DNA of 32,000 nucleotides from Haloarcula limicola (GTDB taxonomy: Archaea; Halobacteriota; Halobacteria; Halobacteriales; Haloarculaceae), in assembly GCF_010119205.1 (NCBI RefSeq), contig NZ_WRXM01000002.1, positions 22,982-54,981 of the forward strand. Reading direction: 5' to 3'. The notes under the pieces are model-generated. The model was given only the letters and a program-made list of their open reading frames with translations, had not been told where the DNA came from and searched no databases. A program made the position numbers and the translations under genes. Positions 2,315 through 23,137 of the stretch are shown piece by piece (within the stretch, counting starts at the first letter, position 1; every line of letters starts with the position of its first letter).

Positions 2315-5300
2315 CTACCGGTCGTCGTAGTCTCGTGCGTCGCAGTCCCAGCGGAAATCGCACTCGTCGCACGTTGCCTTGTCGGGGAGGTCGTCTTCGT
2401 CCCAGTCGTCCAGGTCGTCCCAGTCGTTGTGTTCGCGGACGTGCTCGAGTTCGGTTACCGTGTTCTCGAACCGGGACATCGCCGCTCGGATCTCACTCTC
2501 GGTGAAGTCTAATTCGAGTCGGGTGGCTTCCGGATCTTCCTCGCCGAGGAAGTACAGCACTGCACTGTCTGGGTACTCGTCTTCCTTCTCGGCGTAGAGC
2601 CCTGCGTAGACGAGCAGTTGTTCGCGGTAGTCCTGGAGGTACCCCCCTCCAGAATTCGGTCGCTGGCTCGCCTTGTAGTCGCAGAGCTTCGTGTGGCCTG
2701 CTTCGTCTGCGATCACGTCGGCGACTCCGGTGAGGATGAAGCTGCCAGCGTTACGCCGGAGTTTGCACTCGGTGTTGATGACCTGGGGGTACAGGTCCGG
2801 TCCGATTTGGGCGTTGAACCGCTTGACGTGTTGGAACACAGCGTTGACCGCGTCCTGCCCCATCGGCATGATCCGCTGGTCCCGGAGCGACTCTACGACA
2901 CTATCGAACTCGTCACGCAGTTTGCCCTCGTCGGGGGTTGTACCTTCGGCTACGCCGTCAACATCACCGTTGTAGTAGCGGTGTGCCCAGTCAAGTGTCT
3001 GGTGGACGGCTAGCCCAGCGAACAGCTGGGTCCCGCTCCCGGCGGCGAACTCGTGCTCGGTGTGGTACCCGTACTGTCGCTTGCACCGTCGGAACGAGAG
3101 CACGTCAGCGACGATCGAGTAGGTCCGACGGGTGTCGTCGGTGGAAGGCGGGCCGACCGTAGTTCCGTCGGGGGCGAGTTCGGCTTCCTGGTCCAGCCGC
3201 TGGTCTGCGTCGAACCAGTCGACACCGACTGGACCGCTGGCGTCAGCGCCGAGCGAAGGGAGCACCGTACTCCCGTCGGCCCCCCGGAGGTAGTAGTCAG
3301 TTCCCAGAAGCACAAGGTTGTCCTCTGCGCGCGAGTGCGCGACGTAGAACTGCCGGACTTGGTCCCGCTCGGCACGTGTGGGAACGTCCGTCGGTGGGGT
3401 ACAGTCGGTGTAGTCGCTGAGCAGGTCCGCTACTCGGGGGACCACCTCTCCGTCGTCTGTAACGTCGTAGTTCTTCTCTGCGGTCCGTTCCAAGCTCGCG
3501 AGGAAGACCACCGGAAACTCTAGGCCCTTGGCTTGATGGACCGTCATCACCTGGACGTGCCCGCTCGGGAAGGTGTCGTACTGGTCCTCCGGGTCGTCGA
3601 GACCTTTGCTCTGGAGGTACTGACCGAACGTCCAGTAGAAGTCGCTCAGAAACCGCACCGAGACGGTGTCGTACTCGTCGTGAGATGTGCGGGTGAGCTT
3701 TCGGTTCTCGGTCACGCCCTCCGCGATGCCCTCGAATGCCTCGAGAAGCTGGCTGAGCTTCCCCAGCCGCTTGGCGCGGTTGACGTGGCCGTCGTCTTTC
3801 GTCCACGTCGAGAACGGCTCGAAGGACCTGATCCGGTTGTAGAGGTCGACGGCGGAGACGTCGGCTACGCTGCCAGAGGGAGCACTTCGAATCCGGGCGG
3901 CTGTGACTTCGAGGTAGTTCGCGAGGTCCTTCGCGTCGTGTCGTTCAATCACGTCGTCCAGAGTGGTGAGCCACTCTTGGAAGTCATCCCCGAGCCCACC
4001 GTAGGGAAGCACGTTGTCTTCCGCCCACTGAAGGTCCGGGTCGAAACACACTGCTAGCGCTGCTAACATCGCCTGAACCTCCTCGTGCTGGACGAATCCC
4101 TTGTTCCGCGGGTTGTGTACCGGGATGTCGCGCGCCTCCAATGCGTTGACGCACTCCCCGACGAACGTCGTGTTGTCCCACTGCGGCCAGTATTCACGAG
4201 TACTGTGGGCTAGCAGTGCCACCTGGTTGAGGTCCTGCACGTAGCCTTCAGCGTGAAGTCGTTGGACTTGGTCAGCGAAGGCTGCCGCGGCCTGCGCTTT
4301 GTTGTCCTCCTTCAGGAGGTGGACGCTTGGGTGGTCGACGGCGTCACGTGCCGCGTTTAGTGGCTCCTTGCCCGGTGCACGGGCCCCAGTGACCTGCATC
4401 GTCGGGTAATAGCCGATGTGGCGGTTGACCCACTCGACGATCTCCGGACGGGAACGGTAGTTCCAGCGCAGTTGTTGCGTCTCGATTTCGTCTTGGTCGA
4501 TACCAAGGTAATCGGACAGACGTTCGGGAAACTCAATCAGACAGTCGACGGTCCCACCGCGGAACCGGTAGAGCGCCTGGTCGTCGTCCCCTACCACTAC
4601 TAACGTCGGGACCTGGTCCGGCATCAGCTCGGCGAGTCGGAAGTAGATCGCCTGCTGGAGGGGGTTCACGTCTTGGTACTCGTCAACAGCGATCCGCTGC
4701 AACGGTGGCTCCTCGCGTTCTGAGTCCCCTTGTGCGAACCGCTGGCCAGCCTCTGTGTCGAGAAACGCCAGGAACCGCTCCTGAAGTCGCGCGAAGTCAC
4801 ACCGCGACTCGTCCCGCAGTGTTGCTAGGTAGTCCCGGTACCCCTCGGCTAGCCGCCTGTACTCGAGTCGGTCGGACTCGGCGAGTGCTTCGACGTCGAC
4901 TCGCAGTTGCGAAAGTCGGTTGAACAACCGTTTCGCGGTGGTGGCCGCAGCCCCCTTCGAGCAGGTGCCGTCGTCGTTCATCCGGGGAACGACGTCTCGG
5001 AACGTGGCGACGTCACCGTCGGCGAGCACGTCGACGTACTCGCTGTGGCGGGCGATGAACATCTCCTGGGCGTCCTCGTCCAAGAGGTCGACGTTGCGGT
5101 AGTCGTCGAACCGGTAGTCGCGCATGATCTCGCCCCAAAGCTGGTGGCCAGTGCCCACGTGTAACTCGTCGACGGAGAACACGTCGTCGTAGCCGAGGGC
5201 GGCGAGATCGCGTTCCAGACGCTGCTCGAGGTTCTCGGCGGCCTTCTCAGTGAAGGTGGTGAGGATGATCCCACCGGGCGGGATGCCGTCCACTAGCAAC

Positions 5301-5545
5301 CACTTCAGGACCGTCACCTCGGTCACGGTACTCTTACCTGCGCCCGGTCCTGCCGTCAGGTGCAGTGGCCCTGTTTCGTGCCGGATGGCGGTTTCTTGGT
5401 CGTCGTCGAACGACCAGTTTGGGTCGTCGTTCTGGACCTGTCGCACCGCCCGCATGACCTCAAGGAACTCGTCGAGTTCGAGGTCATCCGGCGACGTTTC
5501 GGGTCCAGGTGTCGGGTGTTCGTCTGTCACGGTTGTGTGCCCCAA
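2315..5545 (-). CDS. UvrD/Rep/AddA-type SF1 helicase fused to a C-terminal RecB/Cas4-like PD-(D/E)xK nuclease with a 4-Cys cluster (1076 aa)
   Basis: All SF1A motifs are visible: AGPGAGKST (I), TFTEKAA (Ia), VDEYQDVNPLQ (II), VVGDDDQALYRFRGG (III), NYRSRPEIV (IV), TVHQAKGLEFPVVFL (V), YVAHSRAEDNLVLL (VI). The C-terminus carries FRRCKRQY, GVADVI, LCDYK, QLLVYAGLY and CDECDFRWDC (C...CxxCxxxxxC, as in AddB/Cas4 Fe-S nucleases). Confidence 0.9.
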   Translation of the reverse strand: MGHTTVTDEHPTPGPETSPDDLELDEFLEVMRAVRQVQNDDPNWSFDDDQETAIRHETGPLHLTAGPGAGKSTVTEVTVLKWLLVDGIPPGGIILTTFTEKAAENLEQRLERDLAALGYDDVFSVDELHVGTGHQLWGEIMRDYRFDDYRNVDLLDEDAQEMFIARHSEYVDVLADGDVATFRDVVPRMNDDGTCSKGAAATTAKRLFNRLSQLRVDVEALAESDRLEYRRLAEGYRDYLATLRDESRCDFARLQERFLAFLDTEAGQRFAQGDSEREEPPLQRIAVDEYQDVNPLQQAIYFRLAELMPDQVPTLVVVGDDDQALYRFRGGTVDCLIEFPERLSDYLGIDQDEIETQQLRWNYRSRPEIVEWVNRHIGYYPTMQVTGARAPGKEPLNAARDAVDHPSVHLLKEDNKAQAAAAFADQVQRLHAEGYVQDLNQVALLAHSTREYWPQWDNTTFVGECVNALEARDIPVHNPRNKGFVQHEEVQAMLAALAVCFDPDLQWAEDNVLPYGGLGDDFQEWLTTLDDVIERHDAKDLANYLEVTAARIRSAPSGSVADVSAVDLYNRIRSFEPFSTWTKDDGHVNRAKRLGKLSQLLEAFEGIAEGVTENRKLTRTSHDEYDTVSVRFLSDFYWTFGQYLQSKGLDDPEDQYDTFPSGHVQVMTVHQAKGLEFPVVFLASLERTAEKNYDVTDDGEVVPRVADLLSDYTDCTPPTDVPTRAERDQVRQFYVAHSRAEDNLVLLGTDYYLRGADGSTVLPSLGADASGPVGVDWFDADQRLDQEAELAPDGTTVGPPSTDDTRRTYSIVADVLSFRRCKRQYGYHTEHEFAAGSGTQLFAGLAVHQTLDWAHRYYNGDVDGVAEGTTPDEGKLRDEFDSVVESLRDQRIMPMGQDAVNAVFQHVKRFNAQIGPDLYPQVINTECKLRRNAGSFILTGVADVIADEAGHTKLCDYKASQRPNSGGGYLQDYREQLLVYAGLYAEKEDEYPDSAVLYFLGEEDPEATRLELDFTESEIRAAMSRFENTVTELEHVREHNDWDDLDDWDEDDLPDKATCDECDFRWDCDARDYDDR

Positions 5546-6598: not shown

Positions 6599-8950
6599 AT
6601 GAGTGAATCATCGGACCGAGCTGGACTCCCGAAATCAGTTGAGTATCAACCCCTCCCCAATATCTACCGTGCGTTCGCCGCAGGGGCCTCTCCATACGCG
6701 ATAGTATCCGAGACAATTGACAATTCGATCGACTTCGTCCGTCGACAGGCGTTAGATGGAGCTAAGTACCCAGATACGTTAAAAGTAGAAGTCCGATACG
6801 AACCCCCTTCTACTACCGAATCCGATGCGGAAAACTCGGCTGTTGATGATCAGAGTCCCGAGCGATTGATAATTGTTGATAATGCCGGCGGTGTTCCGCC
6901 GAACGAACTGGCCCGATTCTTTCAGTTAGGCCACACGGATGCTCCACCTGAGGGAATTGGGCGCTTCGGTGTCGGAGCGAAACGACTCATCGGTATTGGA
7001 GACCGTATCAAATACGAGTCACATGCGAATGGATACGAAGTTGCTGCGGGTTTCGAAGTGGATGCTCGAGATCTCAAAGCCACCGAAAATAACAAACTCG
7101 CCGACGACGATGTCTACCAATCGGATGTTTATCGAGTTGATGATTTAGAGGAAGGCCATACAAGAATCATCGTTGAAGATCTGAATGAAAACGTCTGGTC
7201 AAACCTGCTTGGACGAGACAGAGATGAGATTGACGAGAGGGCTAGCGATTCTCTCTGGCGACTTGGTGAGACATACGAGCACTTCCTTCGAAACGGAATT
7301 CACATCGCTGCTCCATCAAGTGAAACTGAAGGTTCTATCGAGTTCGAACTCAGTTGGTCTGGTCCTGAACACGGGGAACAAGTAGATGTCCCCAATCCAG
7401 TCCAACTTAGTTGGCTACCGCTCGATGGACTTCATCCGAGACGGTATGAGCGACTTCCCTTCGCGAATACTACCGAAATCGAATTAGAGGACGCTCTTCG
7501 GGCCGACATCACGGTGGCCTTAATGCCCTCGTCAAAGCCCAAAGATGCTGGGCTAACGGTAACGATGAATAACCGGAACGTACTGTTCCGAGACACCGAT
7601 AACGATTTGTTCTCTACTCGGTACCTTGGCAAATTCCGCGAATCACAAGGTCACGGTCGGCTGCATTGCGTCATCGAATTATATGGCCCGGCAGAGGATA
7701 TGCCTTGGTCTGATACGAAGGATGGCCTCGATGGAACTCAAGAGATAACCGATCATCTTCTTAATGTCACAGAAAATGCCCTTAGCGAATATCGACGTCA
7801 GACTTACGAAAATCTCCCAAAATGGATCTTAGCTGCCTACTCCGGCGAGGATATACAGACGTTTGACAACCACATTCGTGACGAGATCTCCGAAACCGTT
7901 GAAACAATCGACAAATCGAATTCAAAAGTCAATAGCCCTCGCTTCAATGAGAAACCCGGAAGTACCGCAACTGGCAAGTACTATCGGTTGTATCCCGAAC
8001 GAGATGGTCTCATCAAGCGCGTTCGGTTACACTCGGAACTCCGAATTCGAGCAGACGATTCAGTAGCGATTAAAGGACTACCTGCTTACCGGCGTTACTT
8101 CGAGACGGAATACGATCACGAGAGCATCACAGAGCTCTCTCCCAAAGAATGCCCTGACCCTGAGGACTTTGAGGTGCCAGTTTTCGCAGATAGTCCGAAC
8201 ACAATCCCGTTGATTGAGGACATCAAGAAACTCGCAGAGACTCACGCCGCCGAAGAGAGAGCAATTACAAATGAGACCGACGGAGTGCCTGCTTGGCTCT
8301 TGCCAAGGTACCAAGAGGAGTTCAAGCAGCACGGTACCACCCTTGAGTCAGCGACCACCATCGGCGAATTCGATTTCGACTCTTGGCGTGCCAAGCACTC
8401 TACATCAGAGGACGTGCGTCGAGGACCAGAGTTCTCTGAACCCGAATCAGAACCGAGCCCTGACCAGCCCGACTCTCCTGATAAACGCCCAACACGTAGT
8501 TCCCCAGCCGACCGGTTAATCGAATCATCAAGTGAAACGACAGGACGTTCATCATCCGGGAACCATGGGGGTAGTTCCAGTACAACTGAGACGTCGAAAG
8601 GTCAATCGTCTGAGGATAGTACGGACCTCTCCAACTTCCAGAGGAGTTCCGTTGTGTCTGACTCCGGGACTGAAGAAGCCAGTATCCCTGAGCGAGAAGT
8701 ACCATCTCCAGATTTTGATTCACAGCAACTTGAAGAACTTCGTAGTGTGTTGGAATTAGACGACGACGCATCCATGGCCACTGTTGTAGACACTGTACGG
8801 GAGCTACAGAGTGAACGTCAGAGGATACAGAATGAACGGAAGCAGCTCATTAACTACCTTGAGCAGCTCAGTGATGTTGTCAATTTTGAAATGATTTTTG
8901 ACGAACCCCCAGATCTTGAAGCGCTGAAAGAAGACAAAAACGAGCCTTGA
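6599..8950 (+). CDS. GHKL-superfamily (MORC/HATPase_c_3-like) ATPase with long C-terminal region, Ser/Glu-rich disordered linker and terminal coiled coil (783 aa)
   Basis: Bergerat-fold motifs are present: VSETIDNSIDF (N-box ExxxNxxD), IIVDNAGGVPPNEL (DxGxG) and GIGRFGVGAKRL (GxxGxG). A low-complexity S/T/E-rich stretch occurs near residues ~600-720. The end is heptad-like: VRELQSERQRIQNERKQLINYLEQL. Confidence 0.85.
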   Translation: MSESSDRAGLPKSVEYQPLPNIYRAFAAGASPYAIVSETIDNSIDFVRRQALDGAKYPDTLKVEVRYEPPSTTESDAENSAVDDQSPERLIIVDNAGGVPPNELARFFQLGHTDAPPEGIGRFGVGAKRLIGIGDRIKYESHANGYEVAAGFEVDARDLKATENNKLADDDVYQSDVYRVDDLEEGHTRIIVEDLNENVWSNLLGRDRDEIDERASDSLWRLGETYEHFLRNGIHIAAPSSETEGSIEFELSWSGPEHGEQVDVPNPVQLSWLPLDGLHPRRYERLPFANTTEIELEDALRADITVALMPSSKPKDAGLTVTMNNRNVLFRDTDNDLFSTRYLGKFRESQGHGRLHCVIELYGPAEDMPWSDTKDGLDGTQEITDHLLNVTENALSEYRRQTYENLPKWILAAYSGEDIQTFDNHIRDEISETVETIDKSNSKVNSPRFNEKPGSTATGKYYRLYPERDGLIKRVRLHSELRIRADDSVAIKGLPAYRRYFETEYDHESITELSPKECPDPEDFEVPVFADSPNTIPLIEDIKKLAETHAAEERAITNETDGVPAWLLPRYQEEFKQHGTTLESATTIGEFDFDSWRAKHSTSEDVRRGPEFSEPESEPSPDQPDSPDKRPTRSSPADRLIESSSETTGRSSSGNHGGSSSTTETSKGQSSEDSTDLSNFQRSSVVSDSGTEEASIPEREVPSPDFDSQQLEELRSVLELDDDASMATVVDTVRELQSERQRIQNERKQLINYLEQLSDVVNFEMIFDEPPDLEALKEDKNEP

Positions 8951-9043
8951 CAGTATATGTATCAGAGTAATCGACTCGGAGAAACAGTTCCGCGATTAAT
9001 ATCCGCGATACATCCCCTGCAACCCACAGTATCTTCACCTCAG

Positions 9044-9790
9044 TTACTCAAAATCAGTCAGATCCGATTGGTCGGTCCAACCTCCTAAGTGAGCATATGC
9101 CTCTGGATTGTAGGGGACCCCCTCAGTGTTCAGTAGCAAATCAGGATACAGTTCCCATGCTAATGCAATAAGCTGTTGTTCGAGTTCTTCAAGGTATGGC
9201 GAGGCCCCCGTGTCTGGTGTATAGGGGCCTATATCGTCAACCTCCCAAGCTTTCATCCACAGATAGACATTCCGTTTGAGTCGACGAGACTTCGGCTCGA
9301 AAAGCGTCCGAATCCATCGCCCTTTTGAGGACCCTGGTGTCTCACCAGTGGATTCCCAAGCTGAATCGAAGTATGCCTGACTCAGACCGCCTAGATGAAA
9401 CGCAGTCCCATACCCCCATCTTGCGAACCGTGACTTCCGCTCCCGGATGTACTTTAAGTTTGGATTGAGTTTATACCCACTAGACGCGAACTTCCCCGAT
9501 TTTCCGATGTAGAGTGGGATTACATCTTTATTGGAGCCGAGCCAGTACATCACATAAATCACACCCTCGTACCGTTGCCCTCGTTCGTGGAAGTCGGTCT
9601 CAACATTTTCTGCCTGCTCAATGACCAGTCGCTCCATGGCCGCACTCCGCTTGAGAACATCGCGTTCGTGCGGTCCGTTTCCGAATTGCTCTGTCTGGAT
9701 CACACCATCGGCGTCAGTTTCGAACAGAGGGACGCTGTCGTCAAGATTGTGGATGTCCACCCATTGGGCCCAGACATCGGCCTTGCTCAT
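9044..9790 (-). CDS. GIY-YIG-family nuclease domain protein (248 aa)
   Basis: GVIYVMY followed 12 residues later by PLYIGKS gives the GIY...YIG pair. Downstream are Arg (RFARW), His (FHLGG), Glu (YLEELEQQLIALAWE) and Asn (LLNTEG), in the order expected for the GIY-YIG fold. Convergent with the GHKL ATPase gene. Confidence 0.65.
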   Translation of the reverse strand: MSKADVWAQWVDIHNLDDSVPLFETDADGVIQTEQFGNGPHERDVLKRSAAMERLVIEQAENVETDFHERGQRYEGVIYVMYWLGSNKDVIPLYIGKSGKFASSGYKLNPNLKYIRERKSRFARWGYGTAFHLGGLSQAYFDSAWESTGETPGSSKGRWIRTLFEPKSRRLKRNVYLWMKAWEVDDIGPYTPDTGASPYLEELEQQLIALAWELYPDLLLNTEGVPYNPEAYAHLGGWTDQSDLTDFE

Positions 9791-9968
9791 ACAGATCCCA
9801 TTTAAAAGCTGGAAATAAAATCCATCGGATTTAGTAAGAACACCGCCCGTATCGAGTCATAGATTACTACCCGCCGGAGAGAACCCGTGGAAAGCACGAT
9901 TTGATCTCCCAGCCCTCTTGCGATGTGTTCAACAGACGACTGTTATGGTATGCATCCGTCGGCTAGTC

Positions 9969-10541
9969 TTACCAAAGGTTAGGTCCACGGCTTCCACGAC
10001 GACCAATAACAAGTGAAAAGGTGAGTACCAGCACGATGCCAGCACCACCTAACAGCCACAATTGCTCTGGCGGTTGAACCTCTTGATAGGCTAAGTATCC
10101 CTGAATCAGTGCCGTCGCTGCCAGCAACCCAGTAGCCAGGGTTAGAACAACGTCTATTTTTCGACTCTCCGAACGCCACTTATCCTCTTTTTGGGTCCGG
10201 TACCAATCATGAGCTACCCGGTATCCCTCCTCAGTCAATCGATATACCACGAAATCTGTGTCTTCGAAGGGTCTGAGGTAGTGAACCAGTCCTTCATCCA
10301 GAAGGTGATTAAGTTCGATTATCGCCTGGTCTTCGGTAAGCTCTGTCTCTGTAAGTAGTTTGGAATCGGTCGAGAGGCTCTCTACCACGTCATATCTGTC
10401 TTCAGACATGTGTTCGGGTACCGTCATATGGCTCAAACTGACGACAACATCTGTCTCATACAGAACCTGAAGGACGTTAACCCAACCACGTGTTACCCAT
10501 TTCTCACCGTCAACGGTCCTTTCCATCAGTAAGTTCGTCAA
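9969..10541 (-). CDS. Membrane-anchored protein: N-terminal winged-helix-like domain plus two C-terminal TM helices (190 aa)
   Basis: The stretch LNHLLDEGLVHYLRPFEDTDFVVYRLTEEGYRVAHDW is wHTH-like. Two hydrophobic spans follow: VVLTLATGLLAATALIQGYLAY and LWLLGGAGIVLVLTFSLVI. Confidence 0.65.
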   Translation of the reverse strand: MTNLLMERTVDGEKWVTRGWVNVLQVLYETDVVVSLSHMTVPEHMSEDRYDVVESLSTDSKLLTETELTEDQAIIELNHLLDEGLVHYLRPFEDTDFVVYRLTEEGYRVAHDWYRTQKEDKWRSESRKIDVVLTLATGLLAATALIQGYLAYQEVQPPEQLWLLGGAGIVLVLTFSLVIGRRGSRGPNLW

Positions 10542-10645
10542 CTAAAGAGTCAATAAACATTATCAAACTATTAGAGAATCCTTCCACTCTACTTGCCATA
10601 TACTGCCACGACATTCCCCTTTAGTGGACGATTCACGCTTTGCAT

Positions 10646-11806
10646 CTAATCAGATATCATCGTTTCCCCCAGTTCTCGTCCTACTCGAGTCTGTTGACGG
10701 TCCGCCGCTACGTCAAGCAGACGACTGCACAGCGATAGTACCTGCCGAACGTTACCCTGAGAACGCTGATGAACCCATTGTAAGCATTCCTCCTCGAACG
10801 GGGCGATTCCTCCAGTCCCATCTACTCGAGCGGTATCTAAATACGAGGCCACCAAGTCGGTGAGGTGTTCGTCTGTCAACGGACGCAACGCTACCTCCTG
10901 ACCGATCCGTTCAGAGAAGGCATGGTACTCACTCATCACGTCTTGCCACACCTCTGGTGCACAGGCAAACAGCAGACAGAGGCCGTGACTATTCTGGTCC
11001 ATCAGATGACGGATGCTATTTAGCGTCGCCTGTTCGTCCTTCGGCGACAGCCGGGCAATACTTTCGAACTCGTCAACAAAGACGAACACACCGGTATACC
11101 CCAGCTCAAGGAGGATATTCTTTAGAGCAGTGAACGCCCGAACGCTCGTCGTGTCGTCGTCGAGGGCGCTATGAATCTCCATTTCCTTCCGTTGCTCGTA
11201 GCGGATTCCTTCGGCGGTCAGCCACTGCCAAGCGTAGAGGTTAGTATCTTCGTACACCATGTGAACGATCGCTCGTGAGAAGTCCGCAAACTGGGTAACT
11301 GTATTAAGCCGTTGGATAGCTGTTGGAATAATCTCCGAGAGCAGCAGTTCGCCCTCGTCGATTAACTCACACATCTCATCGGGCCTGGATGGATGCCAGT
11401 CAGTAATATCTGAGGTAATATGAGCGAGATACTCGTACGCGAGTTGCTGCACTCGATCAAACCCTAGATCGTAGAGGAACTCGTGGTAGATATCACGGAA
11501 TCCCTCCCCGGGTTGGGCGACGTAACCGACGAGTACGTCGTCGCGATCACGGACCAGTGACCGTGTGTACTTGAGCGTATGTGACTTCCCGTTACCGTAT
11601 TTGGCTGTGACGACAAGGTGTTTCGACTTCCCGGTACTGAGCATCGTAGAGACTGTGTCGCTAATTCGCTTCGCTGCGTGTTCCTGTCCGCAGTATATCT
11701 CCGGGTCGTTTTTCGGAACAGGACTGTAGGGGAAAGGATTCTCCTCCAAGTTGAACTGGGAGTAATCGCGCTGTTCGTCGGTAATGGTGAAACCGTTGTC
11801 AGTCAT
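10646..11806 (-). CDS. P-loop NTPase (AAA/ORC-Cdc6-like or DUF2791/BrxC-like Walker ATPase), 386 aa
   Basis: I prefer the ATG at 11806, 2 nt after the upstream stop, to the track start at 11881, which would overlap by 83 nt. Visible motifs are N-terminal NPFPY, Walker A AKYGNGKSHT and Walker B GVFVFVDEFE. Confidence 0.8.
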   Translation of the reverse strand: MTDNGFTITDEQRDYSQFNLEENPFPYSPVPKNDPEIYCGQEHAAKRISDTVSTMLSTGKSKHLVVTAKYGNGKSHTLKYTRSLVRDRDDVLVGYVAQPGEGFRDIYHEFLYDLGFDRVQQLAYEYLAHITSDITDWHPSRPDEMCELIDEGELLLSEIIPTAIQRLNTVTQFADFSRAIVHMVYEDTNLYAWQWLTAEGIRYEQRKEMEIHSALDDDTTSVRAFTALKNILLELGYTGVFVFVDEFESIARLSPKDEQATLNSIRHLMDQNSHGLCLLFACAPEVWQDVMSEYHAFSERIGQEVALRPLTDEHLTDLVASYLDTARVDGTGGIAPFEEECLQWVHQRSQGNVRQVLSLCSRLLDVAADRQQTRVGRELGETMISD

Positions 11807-12698
11807 CGTTGTTTGGATCGTATTCGAGGTCACGGTCGTGGACCGCGAGATAGTAGTATCGCTTGCCGAACTGTTCGACACCGCGCATCACTTTGTCGGT
11901 CGACTGATTAGTAGAAACGAGACTACCGCTATCGGCGATCGTCATGGATTTGATGCCGAGTTTCGCATCTTTGGCTACCGTATCCACGGGGGCGCCCGAC
12001 AGCTCTACTCGTCCGACATTCTGCTCTGCAAGACGAACCAGAGCTTTGTCGAAGGGATCGCGTGGACACGTAAACTGCTCACAGTAGTGCTCGCGCAGCT
12101 TCGGGATTGAAAGATAGCGTTGTCTTAGTGACACTCCCCCAGTCTCCTCCAAATCGTCGAATACTGACAACAGATGGTCGGTGAAGCTGGACGTGACGCT
12201 GTCGCGTTCAACTGGATAGTAAGTACCGGTGAACGCGTTGCGCTGGATACGTCCGAGACGTTCGCCCCAGTCACCGAGAACCTCAACGCTCGTCTGATTA
12301 TATGTCCGTCCGGTGCTTTGCTCTCGTGTCTGTAGATCTCTAAGGATTGTTTCTAGATCGGTTGGTGCAGTCTCCTTGAGTGACTGAAGGAGTGCCCTGT
12401 AGTGGGGGCTCTGTGCCTCCAAGATATTGTTGACTCGGTCCCAGTTCTCATCCCGAACTGCCTTGACGAGATCGACGCCTATCTGGGTCGCCAGAAACCA
12501 CGTCTCGGAATCCTCAGGATTATGTTCGTCAATCAGGCCGACACGCAGCGCTTCAAGAATTGTCTCGCGTGCTCGTCGGTGGCTGACGTTCAATGCAGCC
12601 TCGATTTCAGCAGTCGTTTGGCTTTCGCCTTTACAGGCATGGGTCACCTCAATAAGGCGAGCAAGAGTAACCGGTCGCACCGTGGGACGCTCGCTCAT
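11799..12698 (-). CDS. wHTH-domain protein of unknown function (299 aa)
   Basis: The N-terminus TLARLIEVTHACKGESQTTAEIEAALNVSHRRARETILEALRVGLID is a typical winged helix. The C-terminal ~200 aa are unrecognised. Its ATG overlaps the stop of the upstream TGT-like gene (ATGA at 12695-12698). Confidence 0.75.
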   Translation of the reverse strand: MSERPTVRPVTLARLIEVTHACKGESQTTAEIEAALNVSHRRARETILEALRVGLIDEHNPEDSETWFLATQIGVDLVKAVRDENWDRVNNILEAQSPHYRALLQSLKETAPTDLETILRDLQTREQSTGRTYNQTSVEVLGDWGERLGRIQRNAFTGTYYPVERDSVTSSFTDHLLSVFDDLEETGGVSLRQRYLSIPKLREHYCEQFTCPRDPFDKALVRLAEQNVGRVELSGAPVDTVAKDAKLGIKSMTIADSGSLVSTNQSTDKVMRGVEQFGKRYYYLAVHDRDLEYDPNNDD

Positions 12699-13762
12699 GT
12701 GAACCTCCGAACTTGCTGTTTCGCCATTTGATATGCTCGCTGAGTCACCTCATTGTGCTCGAACCGAAGGTCGAGATACGCCTCGATATCGTAATCGCCT
12801 GCGACCATGTACCGGAACCGACGAAGTTCAGTCACCAGCGACCAGAGGTTGTGTTGCGTCAGCAGATTCCGGTCCTTGCGTATGGTCGACAGCGGTCGTG
12901 AGCAGCAGACTGGGCACGAACATGGTAGATGCTCTAATTCCTCGATGCTATGGAGTTCCGTACCGCCGAATCCTGGAACAAGGTAGTTTCGATTGCCTGC
13001 GCTCCGGATGAATGCCGATGAGTCGAAACTATCGACGCCTAGATACAGCAACAGCGGCTGATAGACAATGCCACCTAACCCGTAAACGTGGAGATGCTTG
13101 TCCGTAACTCGTCGAGCAGACAGTATTAGTTTGGTTACTTTCTTGTAATCTGTCCTAATCGGCACTAAGCTACCGAGAGCATATCCGTCGAAGTCCCCTT
13201 TACGTTCGAGATATCGGAGTGTGTTCCGGATTGTTTTGGGATCGTGCCCATGAACACTGGCGAAAAGAAGTGCCTCTCCTTCGTGAGCATCGCTTGCTTG
13301 GAGTGCATATGTTGTACTCTCCTCAATTCGCTGTTGGTTCTCTACTGCCCGATTTTCGGGTGAGAGAGGTCGGTCAAGCGTCCCATAAATGTCTGCATCA
13401 AGTTGCCGTTGTGTTTCCAGTACTTGCTTTGGTGTAGTGTCGACTTCTTTGGAACGATAATCGAACCCACCGCTGTCGGCGTACAGAATAGTCTTACTAG
13501 GAACGCCCATCTCCTCACGTATCGTAGCCCCCTCGAGAAGACGATCCCACTGTGGACCACGCTGGCGGATTGCTCTGGTGTTTACCATTGCAGTCCGGAG
13601 GTCAGGTATACTGTCGGCGTACTCTGGGGTATTATCGCTCGACCGTTTTCCGATATTGCGGACTGGAAAGAGCACTGGTGTCTCCAGCGGCCCGTGCGGT
13701 GTCTTGAGCGTGCGGTGTCGGTACAGCATGGCGGCGCGCTTCGATAAGCTGGCGAGGCTCAT
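12695..13762 (-). CDS. TGT-superfamily transglycosylase, catalytic-core-only (arcTGT/DpdA-like), 355 aa
   Basis: TGT landmarks appear in order: ETPVLFPV (TPxFxPV), YADSGGFDY (DSGGFQ nucleophile motif), GTLDRPL, GYALGSL, LHVYGLGG, GVDSFDSSAFIRSAGNR and the Zn site CSCPVC...H (LTQHNL). No PUA or C-terminal tRNA-binding domains are present. I prefer the ATG at 13762 to the TTG at 13825; the ATG at 13729 is an alternative. Confidence 0.85.
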   Translation of the reverse strand: MSLASLSKRAAMLYRHRTLKTPHGPLETPVLFPVRNIGKRSSDNTPEYADSIPDLRTAMVNTRAIRQRGPQWDRLLEGATIREEMGVPSKTILYADSGGFDYRSKEVDTTPKQVLETQRQLDADIYGTLDRPLSPENRAVENQQRIEESTTYALQASDAHEGEALLFASVHGHDPKTIRNTLRYLERKGDFDGYALGSLVPIRTDYKKVTKLILSARRVTDKHLHVYGLGGIVYQPLLLYLGVDSFDSSAFIRSAGNRNYLVPGFGGTELHSIEELEHLPCSCPVCCSRPLSTIRKDRNLLTQHNLWSLVTELRRFRYMVAGDYDIEAYLDLRFEHNEVTQRAYQMAKQQVRRFT

Positions 13763-13766
13763 AAAA

Positions 13767-13784
13767 GGTTGGTTCAGACCAACC
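13767..13784. promoter_or_regulatory. Perfect 7-4-7 palindrome GGTTGGT-tcag-ACCAACC in the divergent promoter region (candidate operator)
   Basis: Read directly from the sequence. It lies 5 bp upstream of the 13762 start of the TGT-like gene and ~55 bp upstream of the HxlR-type gene. A TATA-like tatgtataat at ~13806-13815 sits ~25-30 bp before the 13839 ATG, a leaderless arrangement. Confidence 0.4.
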
Positions 13785-13838
13785 CAAACTGCAGATAATC
13801 CGGAGTATGTATAATGACCCACCAATCAGTACGGGGTG

Positions 13839-14117
13839 ATGTATAACGAGGTTCGGTCAGTGGTTGAATCAAAATGGTCGATAAAGATCCTATCGTCGCT
13901 GTCAGAGGAGAGTCCACAGAATTTCTCGACGGTTCAGGAGCAGTTCGATACCTCGAACGATGTCATCACTGATAGACTGAGACTCCTTGCCGAGTACGAT
14001 CTCATTGATCGGAGAGAGCATACTCGTAGAGATGTTCGGTATAGCATCACTAAGCGTGGTGAACGATTCCTTGATGAACTGAGGGATCTCAATTCATTAC
14101 TCAGGAAGGGACTCTGA
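13839..14117 (+). CDS. HxlR-type winged-helix transcriptional regulator (92 aa)
   Basis: SKWSIKILSSLSEESPQNFSTVQEQF...ITDRLRLLAEYDLIDRREH...VRYSITKRGERFL matches the HxlR/DUF24 pattern (W-x-x-x-IL...F-x-E/T...L-x-x-L...R...Y-x-LT-x-x-G). It is embedded in opposite orientation between the two TGT-containing operons. Confidence 0.8.
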   Translation: MYNEVRSVVESKWSIKILSSLSEESPQNFSTVQEQFDTSNDVITDRLRLLAEYDLIDRREHTRRDVRYSITKRGERFLDELRDLNSLLRKGL

Positions 14118-14134
14118 ACAGATCCACTGGCCTA

Positions 14135-14842
14135 CTACTGGTAGTCGCCCAACCCACTCTGTGTTGTGGGTTCAGTCGTTAGATACTGAGCCAACTTCTC
14201 CAGGCACTCTACGCGTTTCCCCTCACTACGATGTGCAGCGAAGTTCTGAAGATAGCGGCCCTTGAGGGCGACGACGATTGTGCCATGTTCCTTCGCTTCT
14301 GCTAGCCGAGCAGAAATCGATATGACGTTATCGCGATCCACGGCGAGACTCTCTTGATTGAATACGACACCCGTCGTCTCGGTCGGAAGTGCATTGAGAA
14401 CTTCTTCAAGGTCACACGCGCGGTAGTAGTCGCTACCGAGGGCCAGAACGACGAGGTCGTATGGTGGGTCCGTCTGTACGGCGTCACGGACGTTCTGCGG
14501 AATTCCTAACTTGATCGCACGTTCGTCAATCTCGGTCGCAGTCATATCAGAGAACGTAATGTCGTACGGCGGTAACTCGGTGTCTTCGTCAACGAGGCCA
14601 AACCCTGCACTAATGTAGACTCGATTAACCGTATCTCCGCTCTCTCGGAGATGATCAACGGCGAAGTCAATGTACTGCTGCTGGCGTCCGGTGTATAATT
14701 GTCTTGCCGGAATACCCTGAACCTTATCTCTCTCAAGTAAGGCCTCGCGATCGTATTGGTCGATTTCAGCGGCATCGAACTCGGATACGTTCTCTGGGTT
14801 ATCTTTAGAGCCAGAACACTGGCCGACGATGAGTACACGCAT
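14135..14842 (-). CDS. DUF6884-like protein (235 aa), function unknown
   Basis: N-terminal IVGQCSGSKD followed by IPARQLYTGRQQQY resembles the C-x-x-x-K ... A-x-x-LY-x-G signature I associate with DUF6884 (recollection only, not verified). Its start is 2 nt after the stop of the 739-aa TGT-like gene, so the two are tightly coupled. Confidence 0.6.
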   Translation of the reverse strand: MRVLIVGQCSGSKDNPENVSEFDAAEIDQYDREALLERDKVQGIPARQLYTGRQQQYIDFAVDHLRESGDTVNRVYISAGFGLVDEDTELPPYDITFSDMTATEIDERAIKLGIPQNVRDAVQTDPPYDLVVLALGSDYYRACDLEEVLNALPTETTGVVFNQESLAVDRDNVISISARLAEAKEHGTIVVALKGRYLQNFAAHRSEGKRVECLEKLAQYLTTEPTTQSGLGDYQ

Positions 14843-14844
14843 GG

Positions 14845-17064
14845 TTAGTAGTCGGTCAGTCCGGATTGCATGAGATGCTGTGGGAGGAATTCGTCTTCGT
14901 ACCCGAGGCGTTCGAGAACGCCGTCTCGAATGCTTGCGGGGTTGGTGTGTTCATGTACCGTGCAGTTGACGTCCTCAAGCCGACTGCGAGTTGCTTCGTC
15001 CAGCTCTAAGTGCCGAGCGTCGACGAAAATATCCTGATACCGCTCACCTTCGGTGACAAGGACGTCGGCTAGGCCGTTGGAGTCGAACGATGCTGTCTCT
15101 GGACGGTTAGCCCACCACTCGTGCAATCCGGTTGCCGACACAGCCCCGATTTCGGCGACAGGGAGGTCGTGAACACTACCCCAGAACGTCGGTCGATCGT
15201 TACGGAGATATCTCTCCATAGTTCCCTGTCCCATCACAGACGCAGATGGACGCGTCACGACGAGAATTTTCGGGAGATCACCCTCGAATTGGTCATAGAA
15301 TCGCCGAGTATTGTGGAATCCACGGCGCCGATTACGGTTATTCCCTCGAAAGATTGCGACTTCGATTCCGTTCCGTGTACAGATTGGACAGTCACACCGT
15401 TTCCAAGGCTTGGCGTTGAGAAGGTCACGGTAATCGTCCAGAAGGTTTGCATCGCTGATCGGGTCCCAGGTCGCGTACGCCTCGACGAGGGGCCACAACG
15501 CGTTGATAGTGCCTGGCGTCTCTGACTCTCGTTCCACAACGACATCGAGCAACGTTGGTGTCCAATCGGTGAATACTTTCTCTGCAACTGCAACCAGGTC
15601 ATCGTACTCGGTGAACGGGATCGGGTTCTCGGGATCATCGTCACGGAGAAGTTTGATCAACTTCGAACTCAGCGGGTCACCGAAACTCGCCCGGAACGCA
15701 CGCCCGTGGTCGTAGCCCGAACGGAATGCCTCTTCAGTTTCTTTGATGTACGCCACGTCATACCGCTCGTCGTGCCGGTGCTCGAGAAGGTACTCCGTGA
15801 TCTCACTGAGAGCTTGTGTCGCTCGGTTGTGCCATGTCTGAAGTGCATCTGCAATCGGCTCGTTATTGTCGAACGCCCGGAGGGCATACAACATCTCCTG
15901 CCCTCGAAGAGCCTTCTCGATACTCGTTTGGAGGTCGTCTCGATAGCTCGGGTACCGGACGCGAATCGCGTCATAGCGCTCGTCGCTGTCGAGATGGTAA
16001 TTCTGTCCCCCTGTCCACGCTGCACGGAGCATGCTTGCGCTGTCGAAACTCGTCATACCACTACGACCGATGGTCTCGAAAGCACCGCTCTTGGCGAATC
16101 CAAAGACGTGGGTGTCGATGCGAGTCTCGTGCGTTCGTTCGAAGCTCTTGATTTCGTTCCCAACGGCACTCACGATATCTTTGACTGCACTCTCCGGACT
16201 TCCAGCGACACCACCGATACCAAGATACTGATACCCAAGATCGAGAACTTCCTTGGTCGCGTTTACGTACGATTCACAGTCCCAACCCTGCACAGCGGAC
16301 ATCAGTCGGAACGAGTAATCCCCTTCCTCGTACCGTTTGCGCATATCGCGAGCATTGCGGAGCGTGAGATCGTACCGATACTGCATATCGTCGGCCCGAT
16401 AGACTGCCCGAGGGTCGCTACGGAGATGTGCAATGATCTCCTCGACATCCCCCTCGAAATCAGTTCGTGTGAATGGCTCGATAGTCGAGACGTGATATAT
16501 GGAGGGTTCTTCTTCCGCGACATACGAAGGCCATCTGCGGCTAGAACTGCCATCGCCGTTGGGCCACGTATCGATCATGACGTCGAGTTCCTCGGTCACC
16601 TCCTCGGGGATGTCACCTTTGCTAAAGTCCCCGCTGAAAGCACGCTCATTGAGATAGAGGCGAGCAGTATGGCCCGCCCCAAGGACGAGGTGGTCAATCG
16701 TCACACCTGTAGTCACGCCGAGCTGCTCGTAGAACTCAAGCATCTCGCCGTTGTCGTACGGTGGGAAGGGGAGAGATTTGTAGCCCCACGCACCACAATC
16801 GCTGATCGTCGGGAGCCATCTAGGCAGGTCCAGTTTGGATGCGTCGTAAATTCCGTTCTCGGTCAATCGCTGTGCCTTAGTCGAACTCTCCTCTGCCTGT
16901 TCTCTCGAGATGAGGACGCCGTCGATCGGAGTGTTCTTCCTGTCGAATAAGTCCCAAATATACGCTAGATCACGCTCATCGGTCCCGAGCGTCGAGTGTT
17001 CGTCGTGGAGAAAATCGTAGTTCGCGTCAACCCGATCATCCCACTCGGGAACGTAGAACCGCAC
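14845..17064 (-). CDS. Large TGT-superfamily protein (DpdA-like core with insertions and ~150-aa C-terminal extension), 739 aa
   Basis: GTG start. The N-terminus is MRFYVPEWDDRVDANYDFLHDE. TGT-like landmarks are ISDCGAWGY (equivalent of DSGGF), SAVQGW, YLGIGGVAGSP, TSFDSASMLRAAWTG and the Zn site CDCPIC...FHN. About 190 residues are inserted between the FDSAS motif and the Zn site, and there is an unrecognised tail after it. Confidence 0.85.
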   Translation of the reverse strand: MRFYVPEWDDRVDANYDFLHDEHSTLGTDERDLAYIWDLFDRKNTPIDGVLISREQAEESSTKAQRLTENGIYDASKLDLPRWLPTISDCGAWGYKSLPFPPYDNGEMLEFYEQLGVTTGVTIDHLVLGAGHTARLYLNERAFSGDFSKGDIPEEVTEELDVMIDTWPNGDGSSSRRWPSYVAEEEPSIYHVSTIEPFTRTDFEGDVEEIIAHLRSDPRAVYRADDMQYRYDLTLRNARDMRKRYEEGDYSFRLMSAVQGWDCESYVNATKEVLDLGYQYLGIGGVAGSPESAVKDIVSAVGNEIKSFERTHETRIDTHVFGFAKSGAFETIGRSGMTSFDSASMLRAAWTGGQNYHLDSDERYDAIRVRYPSYRDDLQTSIEKALRGQEMLYALRAFDNNEPIADALQTWHNRATQALSEITEYLLEHRHDERYDVAYIKETEEAFRSGYDHGRAFRASFGDPLSSKLIKLLRDDDPENPIPFTEYDDLVAVAEKVFTDWTPTLLDVVVERESETPGTINALWPLVEAYATWDPISDANLLDDYRDLLNAKPWKRCDCPICTRNGIEVAIFRGNNRNRRRGFHNTRRFYDQFEGDLPKILVVTRPSASVMGQGTMERYLRNDRPTFWGSVHDLPVAEIGAVSATGLHEWWANRPETASFDSNGLADVLVTEGERYQDIFVDARHLELDEATRSRLEDVNCTVHEHTNPASIRDGVLERLGYEDEFLPQHLMQSGLTDY

Positions 17065-17229
17065 TATTCAATCACCTACTCTGTGTTTCTCTTTTCGGCA
17101 TATTAGCGTACTGCTTCCGTGGTGGAACTGAAGAGGTCGGGTCCAGTGTTTTATACTCCGAACCGCTGAAGACTTCACTACATGCCCCACATTGTTCAGT
17201 CGACGACGCTTGGTGCAGTTAATTATATT

Positions 17230-17520
17230 CTAATTAGTGGAACCTGCGTGCTTGATTTTGCCGTTTCTGGTGAAGATGATTACTACACCTAGTCTAGCAC
17301 TGAGGACGCCGACTGGCCGGTAGAGGATGTTTCGCGGGTCGAAAACGTAGATGAAGCCCGTGTGATCCTCTATCCAGATGCCAAGACCTTCATCTGTGAA
17401 ATATCCGCGGATGGGGAGGAACACAATCAGGGTCCAGTTCGTTGCTACTGTGAGTGAGAGGAAGTCTATAGGTGGTCCATCTTCACTGAGTACCGTATGT
17501 TTATATGCTATCTGAACCAT
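17230..17520 (-). CDS. Hypothetical protein (96 aa), uncertain
   Basis: ATG-initiated ORF on the same strand as, and upstream of, the 739-aa gene. It has one hydrophobic stretch (WTLIVFLPI) and no recognisable motif. Its start is only 8 bp from the divergent queD start, which is awkward for promoters. Confidence 0.3.
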   Translation of the reverse strand: MVQIAYKHTVLSEDGPPIDFLSLTVATNWTLIVFLPIRGYFTDEGLGIWIEDHTGFIYVFDPRNILYRPVGVLSARLGVVIIFTRNGKIKHAGSTN

Positions 17521-17528
17521 CGGTGAGT

Positions 17529-18003
17529 ATGCCCGAGATAGCTTCAGGAGAATACTCCAGTAATATCTCCCTTGACGAGGCGGGCGAGCGGACCCTCCAC
17601 GTCGGTCGTGAGTGTCCTAACCGAATCAGTTCGGGGCACCGCATCCGCTACCATGACGGGAAGTGCTCCCGCCCACACGGGCACAATTACGAAATTTCAG
17701 TGACGGTCACCGGCGAAATCAGCGAGGAGGGGTGGATCGTCGACAAGGGCGACGTTACGGCCATCATCAGCGAGTGGGACCACCGTTTTTTACTCGGAAA
17801 AAGGTGACCTGCTCATTGAGGCATTTGAACGGTCGGGAGATGGTGACGCTGTTGTGGTCCTCAATCAGCCACCAACAGCAGAGGTGATGGCTGCGGTCCT
17901 CGAGCAACGTATGATAGAGGCGTTCCCCGAGAACGTCTCTGAGGTCTCTGTGGAAGTAGCCGAGACAAGAAGCGGGAACTCGGAGCCAACCGTTAATACG
18001 TAG
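17529..18003 (+). pseudogene. queD: queD (6-carboxy-5,6,7,8-tetrahydropterin synthase) interrupted by a +1 frameshift in an A5 run at 17798-17802
   Basis: Frame 0 reads ...ISSGHRIRYHDGKCSRPHGHNYEISVTVTGEISEEGWIVDKGDVTAIISEWDHRFLLGKR*, giving the QueD motifs C-x3-HGH-x-Y and DH-x-x-L. The +1 frame from 17803 continues GDLLIEAFERSGDGDAVVVLNQPPTAEVMAAVLEQRM...VSVEVAETRSGN...*, giving the QueD C-terminal PTxE and ET motifs, and stops at 18001-18003. Deleting one A restores a single ORF. An ATG at 17505 is an alternative start. Confidence 0.75.
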
Positions 18004-18022
18004 CTCTCCAGCAGTAAAAGTG

Positions 18023-18610: not shown

Positions 18611-18700
18611 GTTTCTTCGGCCCCTGAACACAAACACCCTCTTCGAGGCCATCAAATGTGGTCCCTCTGAATACTACTATTTGCCACAATTCTGAACACA

Positions 18701-23106: not shown

Positions 23107-23137
23107 AACATAGAACACATCTCACCTCGGATGTGGA

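Follow-up and report, generated by a model that had tools for sequence, protein, structure and literature searches.

What is the role of a short TGT-family transglycosylase whose gene is tightly coupled to those of a winged-helix protein and an AAA+ ATPase? Such a trio lies within the 32,000-nucleotide stretch of Haloarcula limicola DNA analyzed here (the window). In bacteria, base insertion by DpdA requires ATP hydrolysis by the partner protein DpdB, a need that was an enigma to its discoverers (PMC10164549). The original prediction read the archaeal trio as a possible DpdA/DpdB analogue in which an unrelated ATPase takes the place of DpdB. We propose, tentatively and at a little under even confidence, that the trio is an ATP-dependent DNA-guanine transglycosylase, forming a fixed module in a Dpd-like island of archaea for 7-deazaguanine modification of DNA (defence).

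Gene anatomy and conservation of the trio

The features of the window that bear on this question are as follows.

2315..5545, minus strand: UvrD helicase and PD-(D/E)XK nuclease fusion, 1076 aa (Pfam)
10646..11806, minus strand: AAA+ ATPase of the BrxC/BrxD (DUF2791) ORC-like kind, 386 aa (Pfam PF10923)
11799..11806, minus strand: ATGACTGA, 8 nt shared by the ATPase start and the winged-helix gene stop (direct reading)
11799..12698, minus strand: 299-aa protein, three tandem winged-helix domains and a small C-terminal beta domain (AlphaFold, Foldseek)
12695..12698, minus strand: ATGA start/stop overlap of the TGT and winged-helix genes (direct reading)
12704..12708, minus strand: GGAGG, Shine-Dalgarno-like, within the TGT coding end (direct reading; putative function)
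12695..13729, minus strand: short TGT-family transglycosylase, 344 aa (start set by homologues)
13836..14117, plus strand: HxlR-type winged-helix regulator, divergent from the trio (Pfam HxlR, E = 9e-8)
14135..14842, minus strand: DpdC-like/DUF6884 protein, 235 aa (PADLOC DpdC, E = 8.6e-10)
14845..17064, minus strand: genuine DpdA homologue, 739 aa (NCBIfam DpdA, NF041059, 278.4 bits, cut-off 200)

The longest minus-strand reading frames of the trio span 12695-13825 (TGT-like), 11799-12698 (the 299-aa protein) and 10646-11881 (the ATPase). Upstream in-frame starts of the TGT gene lie at 13825 and at 13762, the latter being the one originally chosen; homologues favor the ATG at 13729 (MLYRHRTL...), which is most likely the true start and would give a protein of 344 residues. 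The predicted ATPase start at 11806 is confirmed, because the homologues all begin M-x-D-x-F-T-I-T-D-E-Q, while its placement 2 nt after the preceding stop has to be corrected: the stop codon of the 299-aa gene occupies 11801-11799, and the ATPase ATG at 11806-11804 therefore overlaps that gene by 8 nt. The predicted ATGA overlap between the TGT stop and the winged-helix start is real (12698-12695), and the GGAGG that could serve as its ribosome-binding element lies 5 nt upstream of the winged-helix ATG.

These junctions were compared at 65 loci, spanning three archaeal orders, from Halobacteria, Methanoregula and Methanosarcina, and gene order is the same throughout. The TGT-to-winged-helix junction is a 4-nt overlap in 60 of the 65, and the winged-helix-to-ATPase junction measures -8, -4, -1 or 0 nt in all but one; coupling of the trio genes is far beyond chance. 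Gene order is identical at 29 of 29 class-level loci, at all six loci of other classes, and at the 42 named loci except for three that end at a contig end. Breaks within the trio amount to a broken TGT frame (L077) and a 34-nt gap (L081), with no others seen in the compared loci, and insertions fall between the DpdC and TGT genes, as with the HxlR gene in the window and ~5 kb in L053. The original prediction looked to other genomes for its support, and the trio is indeed kept as a unit in many of them; an ATPase/winged-helix pair apart from a TGT gene was seen at none of the compared archaeal loci. Bacterial relatives of the 299-aa protein number none among the 42 loci of a pattern-based search across 185,579 species genomes, a search that distant relatives may escape, and our literature search turned up no account of the trio. 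The cassette is present in Haloarcula vallismortis, the host of the dPreQ1-containing virus HVTV-1, and the system is therefore testable in an already studied virus-host pair.

Properties of the three proteins

The short transglycosylase matches Pfam TGT with E = 1.2e-29. Its closest NCBIfam model is the archaeal enzyme arcTGT TgtA (TIGR00432), at 137.4 bits and below the cut-off of 350, and against the DpdA model NF041059 it scores 26.6 bits, short of the equivalog cut-off of 200. Upon alignment to the arcTGT of P. horikoshii (1IQ8, 582 aa), one finds DSGGF, LDRP, FDSS and CSCPVC...H conserved, with the protein ending ~30 residues past the Zn site, short of the tRNA-binding domains. The same four motifs are invariant in the trio TGTs of the 25 loci compared, all 25 of which retain both catalytic aspartates, the base-binding aspartate and the Zn site. 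The enzyme carries the residue set described for DpdA (PMC10164549): catalytic Asp95/Asp256, base-binding Asp130, the Zn site and a preQ0-type loop. That loop, G-S-L-V-P-I, resembles G-G-V-V-P-L of arcTGT and G-G-M-V-P-L of bacterial DpdA, the published rule for preQ0-type loops being GGhsbb (PMC10164549); judged by its sequence, the pocket is of the preQ0 type, like those of arcTGT and bacterial DpdA.

Two other markers of affinity were set aside. The position equivalent to His181 is His in Halobacteria and Gln in four of six methanogen homologues, and the His of 'VHG' was dropped as a DpdA signature for this reason. Assignment to DpdA4, which matches DUF6610, was ruled out because Pfam gave PF01702 alone. 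No close phage or halovirus relative of the TGT was found, the only viral matches being weak ones at 25-26% identity in Sulfolobus viruses and Xanthomonas/Erwinia jumbo phages.

The 299-aa protein has no Pfam, NCBIfam or PADLOC match, and the 453 members of its family are each unnamed or "hypothetical"; it stands outside any known family. Its AlphaFold model (pLDDT 88) places three winged-helix domains in tandem, in keeping with the predicted winged-helix character, and the best Foldseek matches are to the multi-winged-helix proteins RPC62, SelB WH1-4 and ScpB, all with low TM (~0.2).

The ATPase had been assigned to an ORC/AAA or DUF2791/BrxC-like kind rather than to a ParB-like one. This holds, the kind being DUF2791/BrxC-BrxD and ORC-like: it reaches 54.7 bits against PF10923 (gathering cut-off 22.2) with a match to AAA_22 as well, and these are the families it matches when examined for a DGQHR/ParB-like fold. 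PADLOC calls it BrxD at E = 1.7e-12, and the NCBIfam BrxD equivalog gives 46.4 bits, below the cut-off of 350. PADLOC and Pfam scans of the window proteins show no BREX components (PglZ, PglX, BrxHI). The motifs that drew attention to the protein are present as quoted, and the Walker A core GNGKSH, the Walker B DEFE, CAPE, GN.R and NPF are invariant in 26 homologues, and the active site is intact. The structural model is mediocre (pLDDT 74), with no fold match at E <= 1e-3 and weak matches to TnsC, the BrxC N-terminus and Orc1/Cdc6.

The surrounding island and the function of the trio

The 739-aa neighbor of the trio aligns to the S. Montevideo DpdA (7UI4), and beside it lies the DpdC-like protein, which scores 28.3 bits against Pfam DUF6884, just under the cut-off of 30. 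The two are frequently fused among relatives: DpdA-DpdC-like fusions of ~967 aa occur in Halobacteria, and the methanogen genome G569 has a 572-aa DpdA homologue with a C-terminal DUF6884 domain (60 bits), and in four further methanogen genomes the DpdA frames have about that length (576-591 aa). In a sample of 401 Halobacteria genomes, the 299-aa protein is found in 55, DpdA in 54 and both in 52, and DpdA adjoins the trio at nearly all loci with enough flanking sequence; in methanogens 3.5-20 kb separate the two within one island. Nearly every carrier genome examined has a genuine DpdA together with a DpdC-like gene, and the trio is therefore a second module and no substitute. The original reading thus survives in part: an ATPase does partner a TGT, and the trio is not the island's equivalent of DpdA, that place being held by the 739-aa protein at 278 bits. 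We define here a five-gene archaeal Dpd-like core, consisting of DpdA, the DpdC-like protein, the short TGT, the triple-winged-helix protein and the BrxD-like ATPase, which is contiguous in the window, with the genes of the trio overlapping, and which recurs in 18 of 20 extended loci and, where the flanking sequence is long enough, in almost every named Halobacteria locus.

Around this core the company is recurrent in kind. The preQ0 genes queC, folE, queE and queD adjoin the cassette in ~20 of the 35 named Halobacteria loci, as does queC in five of six Methanoregula loci; housekeeping queC and queD in the genome can supply preQ0. A small winged-helix gene occupies the HxlR position in five of six methanogen loci (MarR-like in G657), and an HxlR homologue occurs in at least five of ~55 other Halobacteria loci. 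Near the cassette one repeatedly finds DpdJ-like helicases, PLD nucleases and UvrD-nuclease pairs, and the island has an integrase. The UvrD-PD-(D/E)XK fusion of the window shares 31-33% identity with the paired UvrD and nuclease genes of G569; it is a candidate effector that belongs to the same island but stands outside the conserved core. A DGQHR/DpdB homologue was found neither in the genome itself nor in five other carriers, with a DpdB model (NF041060/TIGR03187) that had no positive control, and this agrees with the prediction of an ATPase other than DpdB. On contig C4 the same genome has a second Dpd-like cluster, a DpdA with a small TGT of 302 aa, in which neither the ATPase nor the winged-helix protein is present; the ATPase is therefore no general requirement of such pairs.

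The data themselves show the gene anatomy, the conservation of the trio as a unit, active sites that are intact, how the middle protein is folded, the genomic company and the lack of DpdB in the genomes searched. From these we infer a DNA substrate, preQ0 as the base, complex formation and ATP dependence. The short TGT would be an arcTGT-type core that has lost its tRNA-binding domains, kept its preQ0-type pocket, and swaps guanine in DNA for preQ0. The triple-winged-helix protein would bind DNA and may pick the site, with the BrxD/ORC-type ATPase assembling on DNA to load or remodel the complex, and so filling for this TGT the role that DpdB, an unrelated ParB-like protein, has for bacterial DpdA. 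DpdA and the DUF6884 protein would form a separate unit that either processes the mark left by the TGT or inserts another derivative. Against the proposal, the genuine DpdA might, like phage DpdAs, insert preQ0 unaided, and it is then hard to see what a second transglycosylase is for. The ATPase-less cluster on C4 also counts against it, as do the mediocre ATPase model with its weak fold matches and the low TM scores of the winged-helix protein.

A further point against it is that in BREX and Dpd the usual role given to ORC-like ATPases is in sensing or restriction. The trio might be no writer at all: its TGT would flip out guanines and react with unmodified guanine only, 7-deazaguanines being poor leaving groups, and the covalent adduct or abasic site would mark or damage foreign DNA, with the ATPase and winged-helix protein assembling on that DNA and recruiting variable helicase-nucleases. 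We consider such a sensing or restriction arm unlikely, though deserving of attention. BREX and Dpd sensing complexes use ATPases of the BrxC/BrxD class, to which the ATPase of the trio belongs, and TnsC, which it weakly resembles in fold, is an adaptor through which an enzyme is recruited to a DNA-bound target. The UvrD and PD-(D/E)XK pair, moreover, directly follows the trio in G569 and at three Methanoregula loci, with DpdA-DUF6884 coming only after it, and DpdA fused to a DpdC-like domain looks like a self-sufficient writer. However, the five-gene core in Halobacteria has no conserved nuclease, its flanking effectors vary, and the TGT keeps a complete preQ0-type pocket that a pure guanine sensor would not need. 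Carriers lacking DpdA have a broken trio too (a truncated TGT in G006, the ATPase lost in G479), as a restriction arm would have it, but such cases are few and ambiguous; gene-decay patterns (G006, G042, G479, G369, G199) were set aside as a means of separating writer from restriction arm, the cases being few and some at contig ends. A particular form of the idea, which seems to us decidedly doubtful, makes the short TGT a reader that attacks guanine and not 7-deazaguanine, and so tells unmarked foreign from marked self DNA, either licensing helicase-nucleases through the ATPase and winged-helix protein or damaging DNA by covalent trapping or base loss. If true, it would be a restriction principle without known precedent.

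TGT enzymes work as dimers (PMC6884629), and the short TGT could instead dimerize with the large DpdA, in the way QTRT2 partners QTRT1, with the ATPase and winged-helix protein loading the heterodimer as one machine. Each of the two clusters in this genome, the ATPase-less one on C4 among them, does pair a small TGT with a large DpdA, and the two enzymes co-occur almost perfectly in Halobacteria. Full catalytic sets in both proteins, unlike a non-catalytic partner, separate operons 14-20 kb apart in methanogens, and translational coupling that joins the TGT to the winged-helix protein and ATPase rather than to DpdA make this quite improbable in our view. Finally, the TGT is nearer in sequence to arcTGT than to DpdA, and haloarchaeal mobile elements commonly carry Orc/Cdc6-like ATPases and winged-helix proteins; the integrase in the island is suggestive of such an element. 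The TGT could then be a paralogue that modifies tRNA, with the other two proteins as helpers, or the trio could be an Orc-like module for replication or partition of the mobile island, beside a TGT by chance. Such a role away from DNA bases has very little probability: the TGT lacks tRNA-binding C-terminal domains, and a canonical arcTGT (C2:202914-203894) and a canonical ArcS lie elsewhere in the genome, so that the tRNA role is already filled. The 4-nt overlaps with the TGT gene are kept across three orders in Dpd-like company, and neither the trio nor any member of the 299-aa family was found on viral contigs.

The preferred reading, an ATP-dependent DNA-guanine transglycosylase, makes of the trio a natural experiment, in which a lineage without DpdB has its TGT joined to a DNA-binding adaptor and to an AAA+ ATPase unrelated to DpdB. 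Should the trio insert preQ0 in an ATP-dependent manner, the energy need would be general to writing 7-deazaguanines into duplex DNA and no quirk of DpdB. The enzyme would constitute a sixth subfamily of TGTs that act on DNA, one with its origin in arcTGT and not in DpdA, and would account for two transglycosylases per archaeal island.

Comparison with known systems

The nearest sequence relative is arcTGT/TgtA (1IQ8), with which the short TGT has its catalytic residues, Zn site and V-P-bulky preQ0 loop in common. It differs in length (344 versus 582 aa), in being without the C1-C3/PUA tRNA-binding domains, and in being patchy and island-borne, at 137 bits versus the cut-off of 350. The ATPase similarly resembles BrxD of type 2 BREX (Pgl) systems, a standalone ORC/Cdc6-type AAA+ ATPase of PF10923 with one tight partner. 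BrxD is tightly paired with the helicase BrxHI, which it is thought to load onto DNA (PMC12839542), whereas the partners of the trio ATPase are a TGT and a winged-helix protein; it scores 46 bits versus 350, and no PglZ, PglX, PglW or BrxHI lies nearby.

A related arrangement is BREX-related capture (BRC), which has a TGT homologue and a STAND NTPase but no DpdB or DpdC, the NTPase being proposed as a DpdB substitute (PMC12839542). Here, too, a TGT homologue occurs in a defence locus without DpdB, with another NTPase as proposed stand-in. The BRC core, however, comprises HerA/FtsK, PglZ, DUF6079 and DUF4007, none of which appeared in family scans of the larger reading frames of the window, and its NTPase is STAND rather than BrxD-like.

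BRIGADE denotes predicted systems of halophilic archaea, defined by one or two YprA-family helicases with a PLD or PD-(D/E)XK nuclease beside a 7-deazaguanine cluster (Bell et al., bioRxiv 10.1101/2025.09.15.676423). The likeness lies in Dpd-like Halobacteria islands with a 7-deazaguanine cluster and YprA/DpdJ-like helicases, where several relatives of the cassette sit. The window differs from this definition, with no close YprA-type helicase or PLD homologue near the cassette, the best YprA-type match in the genome (E = 8e-12) being on another contig; the trio, moreover, occurs in methanogens too. The preprint names related haloarchaeal islands, and in the portions of its text and supplements available to us the trio is absent from the account, with no mention of DpdA, TGT, transglycosylase or BrxD.

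With the DpdA-DpdB-DpdC system of Salmonella enterica serovar Montevideo (PMC10164549), finally, the trio shares the catalytic aspartate pair, the Zn site and a preQ0-type pocket, and its island shares the pairing of a TGT-fold enzyme with an ATPase, preQ0 genes, a DpdC-like gene and a defence-island setting. Unlike the bacterial system, the archaeal one employs a BrxC/BrxD-family AAA+ ATPase and not a ParB-like DGQHR protein, interposes a separate triple-winged-helix protein, and has in its trio an arcTGT-like TGT (26.6 bits versus the DpdA cut-off of 200) alongside a genuine DpdA, and hence two transglycosylases.

The trio and its gene junctions

The three open reading frames of the trio lie head to tail on the minus strand of the window.

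13729-12695, minus strand: short TGT (344 aa)
12698-11799, minus strand: 299-aa winged-helix protein, with its stop codon at 11801-11799
11806-11804, minus strand: ATG of the BrxD-like AAA+ ATPase, start fixed by homologues

The original prediction had the TGT stop and the winged-helix start sharing an ATGA, and they do; a GGAGG stands 5 nt upstream of the latter start. Homologues suggest ATG 13729 for the TGT in place of the 13762 first proposed. The ATPase had been placed at 11806, correctly, and 2 nt beyond the winged-helix stop, where there is in fact an 8-nt overlap (ATGACTGA), so that the coupling of these two genes is, if anything, tighter than had been supposed. In 60 of 65 loci the TGT and winged-helix genes overlap by 4 nt, and the winged-helix/ATPase junction measures -8, -4, -1 or 0 nt in 64 of the 65.

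The trio is a unit. Of 401 sampled Halobacteria genomes, 55 (in 35 of 90 genera) encode the 299-aa protein, and all 29 Halobacteria loci retrieved carry TGT, winged-helix gene and ATPase in identical order. A phylum-wide profile search added six carriers beyond the Halobacteria with that order, at 32-43% identity. When one genome per species was scanned, 42 named loci were obtained, 35 from Halobacteria, six from Methanoregula/Methanoregulaceae and one from Methanosarcina, with no bacterial locus among them. Insertions, where they occur, separate the TGT from the DpdC-like gene; within the trio the breaks seen are limited to a single broken TGT frame and a single gap of 34 nt.

Degenerate loci also occur. 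At G006:C1:512788-514993 the TGT is reduced to its last 56 residues and DpdA is missing, at G042:C61:10679-11907 the TGT has an internal TGA, locus L065 (genome G479) has lost the ATPase and lacks DpdA, and L073 (genome G369) retains truncated DpdA and DpdC-like genes without the trio. A small winged-helix regulator gene is divergent from the trio in the window (13836-14117, HxlR-type) and elsewhere (e.g. L063:8271-8540 and L068:8156-8461); it is MarR-like in the methanogen G657, is present in five of six methanogen loci and has homologues at a few Halobacteria loci. The trio may therefore have its own transcriptional control.

The short TGT matches the Pfam TGT family (E = 1e-29) and is closest to arcTGT, at 137 bits against a cut-off of 350, with DpdA distant (26.6 bits, cut-off 200). 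Aligned to P. horikoshii arcTGT, it has the DSGGF, LD.P and FDSS motifs and the CxCxxC...H zinc site, and stops ahead of the tRNA-binding domains; the catalytic and zinc residues are invariant in all 25 loci compared. Its substrate loop, G-S-L-V-P-I, fits the preQ0-type rule drawn from arcTGT (GGVVPL) and bacterial DpdA (GGMVPL) (Gedara et al., PMC10164549). Canonical arcTGT and ArcS are encoded elsewhere in the genome.

Pfam, NCBIfam and PADLOC hold no family for the 299-aa protein. Its confidently predicted structure (pLDDT 88) has three winged helices in tandem, followed by a small beta domain, with a likeness, at low TM scores, to the multi-winged-helix proteins RPC62, SelB and ScpB. The ATPase is an AAA+ protein of PF10923 (BrxC/BrxD, DUF2791; 54.7 bits, cut-off 22.2) with invariant Walker A and B cores, CAPE and GN.R motifs; its fold matches, to TnsC, the BrxC N-terminus and Orc1/Cdc6, are weak. 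Orthology with BrxD was rejected (46 bits, cut-off 350).

The DpdA module and its genomic setting

Directly upstream of the trio lie a gene for a DpdC-like DUF6884 protein and a genuine DpdA (NCBIfam, 278 bits; aligned to 7UI4).

14845-17064: DpdA, 739 aa
23505-24749: tyrosine integrase

In the Halobacteria sample 52 genomes have both DpdA and the 299-aa protein, out of 54 with DpdA and 55 with the 299-aa protein; the cases with only one of the two are degenerate loci, fragments or contig ends. The five genes thus form a near-obligate cassette in Halobacteria. Fusions of DpdA to the DpdC-like protein, of about 967 aa, are frequent there (L040-L050 and other loci), and the methanogen G569 (L067:15033-16751) has a 572-aa DpdA with a C-terminal DUF6884 domain, strong evidence that the two proteins act together. 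In the DpdA pocket, Q-G-W replaces H181-G of S. Montevideo DpdA and G-G-V-A-G-S replaces its G-G-M-V-P-L, both family-conserved. As small pocket residues go with bulkier substrates (Gedara et al., PMC10164549), this suggests room for a 7-substituent bulkier than the cyano group of preQ0.

The host genome is haloarchaeal and 3.9 Mb in size, and the window covers 22982-54981 of its contig C2. Since G+C is roughly 50% over ~6000-24800 of the window, vs 64-72% past 25000, and the integrase gene sits at the end of the low-G+C stretch, the island is an acquired one. Its queD copy (17505-17807) halts after about 100 codons and is therefore split or frameshifted; housekeeping queD and queC are intact on contig C1 (1652062 and 1653274). 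The genes queC, folE, queE and queD adjoin the cassette in about 20 of 35 Halobacteria loci, and in about 10 loci of Halobacteria a conserved 224-aa protein without a family, absent from the window, lies between queD and DpdA (e.g. L047:4725-5399). Downstream of the trio ATPase, and outside the conserved cassette, are genes for a GHKL-type ATPase (783 aa, 6599-8950), a 248-aa protein (9044-9790) and a 190-aa membrane protein (9969-10541), of which only the first has distant relatives near the cassette, at two other loci (L050 and L111).

In four methanogen genomes the DpdA frame, of 576-591 aa, is 14-20 kb from the trio, and in three of these the interval holds a DpdJ-like helicase, a large AAA_22-type ATPase, a PD-(D/E)XK-plus-helicase fusion, an MZB-domain protein and a HEAT-repeat protein. 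A compact arrangement, in which the trio is followed by UvrD, a PD-(D/E)XK nuclease and then DpdA, is seen at three Methanoregula loci and in G569. A 1076-aa UvrD helicase/PD-(D/E)XK nuclease fusion in the window (2315-5545) is 31-33% identical to the separate UvrD and nuclease genes of G569; it may be the island's effector, though located in a higher-G+C block.

Function of the two modules

Two modules emerge from the evidence, each of them indivisible: one joins DpdA and the DpdC-like protein, the other the TGT, the winged-helix protein and the ATPase. The ATPase is tied to the short TGT rather than to DpdA, and we therefore take it to be the helper of the short TGT; the preQ0 pocket like that of arcTGT and bacterial DpdA likewise belongs to the short TGT, not to the 739-aa DpdA. 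Together these two observations favour an ATP-dependent DNA transglycosylase complex, a functional analogue of DpdA-DpdB, as had been proposed. Searches of this genome and of five other carriers turned up no DGQHR/DpdB protein. The DpdA/DUF6884 module would then process the trio's mark, or add another.

A second Dpd-like cluster of the same genome (L056, G000:C4:66000-85900; genes at 7750-13431) counts against a simple "DpdB replacement", since it has TGT, DpdA and DpdC-like genes and neither ATPase nor winged-helix protein.

Gene order on contig C4: 486-aa unknown protein, 302-aa TGT, 727-aa DpdA, 241-aa DpdC-like protein, integrase

Its TGT has intact catalytic motifs and zinc site, its DpdA is about 50% identical to that of the window, and no DpdA copy of this second type came to light in the other 400 sampled Halobacteria. 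Two main rivals stand against the transglycosylase complex: the trio may act in reading or restriction, or the TGT may form a heterodimer with DpdA.

Relation to described systems

Bacterial Dpd has already been characterised (PMC10164549), and a host DpdA was reported on contig AOLQ01000002 of Haloarcula vallismortis, the host of HVTV-1 (Hutinet et al. 2019). That contig (L092; strain ATCC 29715, NZ_AOLQ01000002.1) carries the full cassette.

Gene order at L092: PLD, queC-folE-queE-queD, 224-aa unknown, DpdA, DpdC-like, trio

Our literature search found no paper that describes the trio. Dpd-like YprA-helicase islands of haloarchaea have been named BRIGADE (Bell et al., 2025 preprint), and that preprint's text and accessible supplements never mention DpdA, TGT or BrxD; no close YprA-family helicase, the hallmark of BRIGADE, lies near the cassette in the window's own genome. 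In unrelated BRC systems, a STAND NTPase has been proposed as a substitute for DpdB (2026 paper, PMC12839542).
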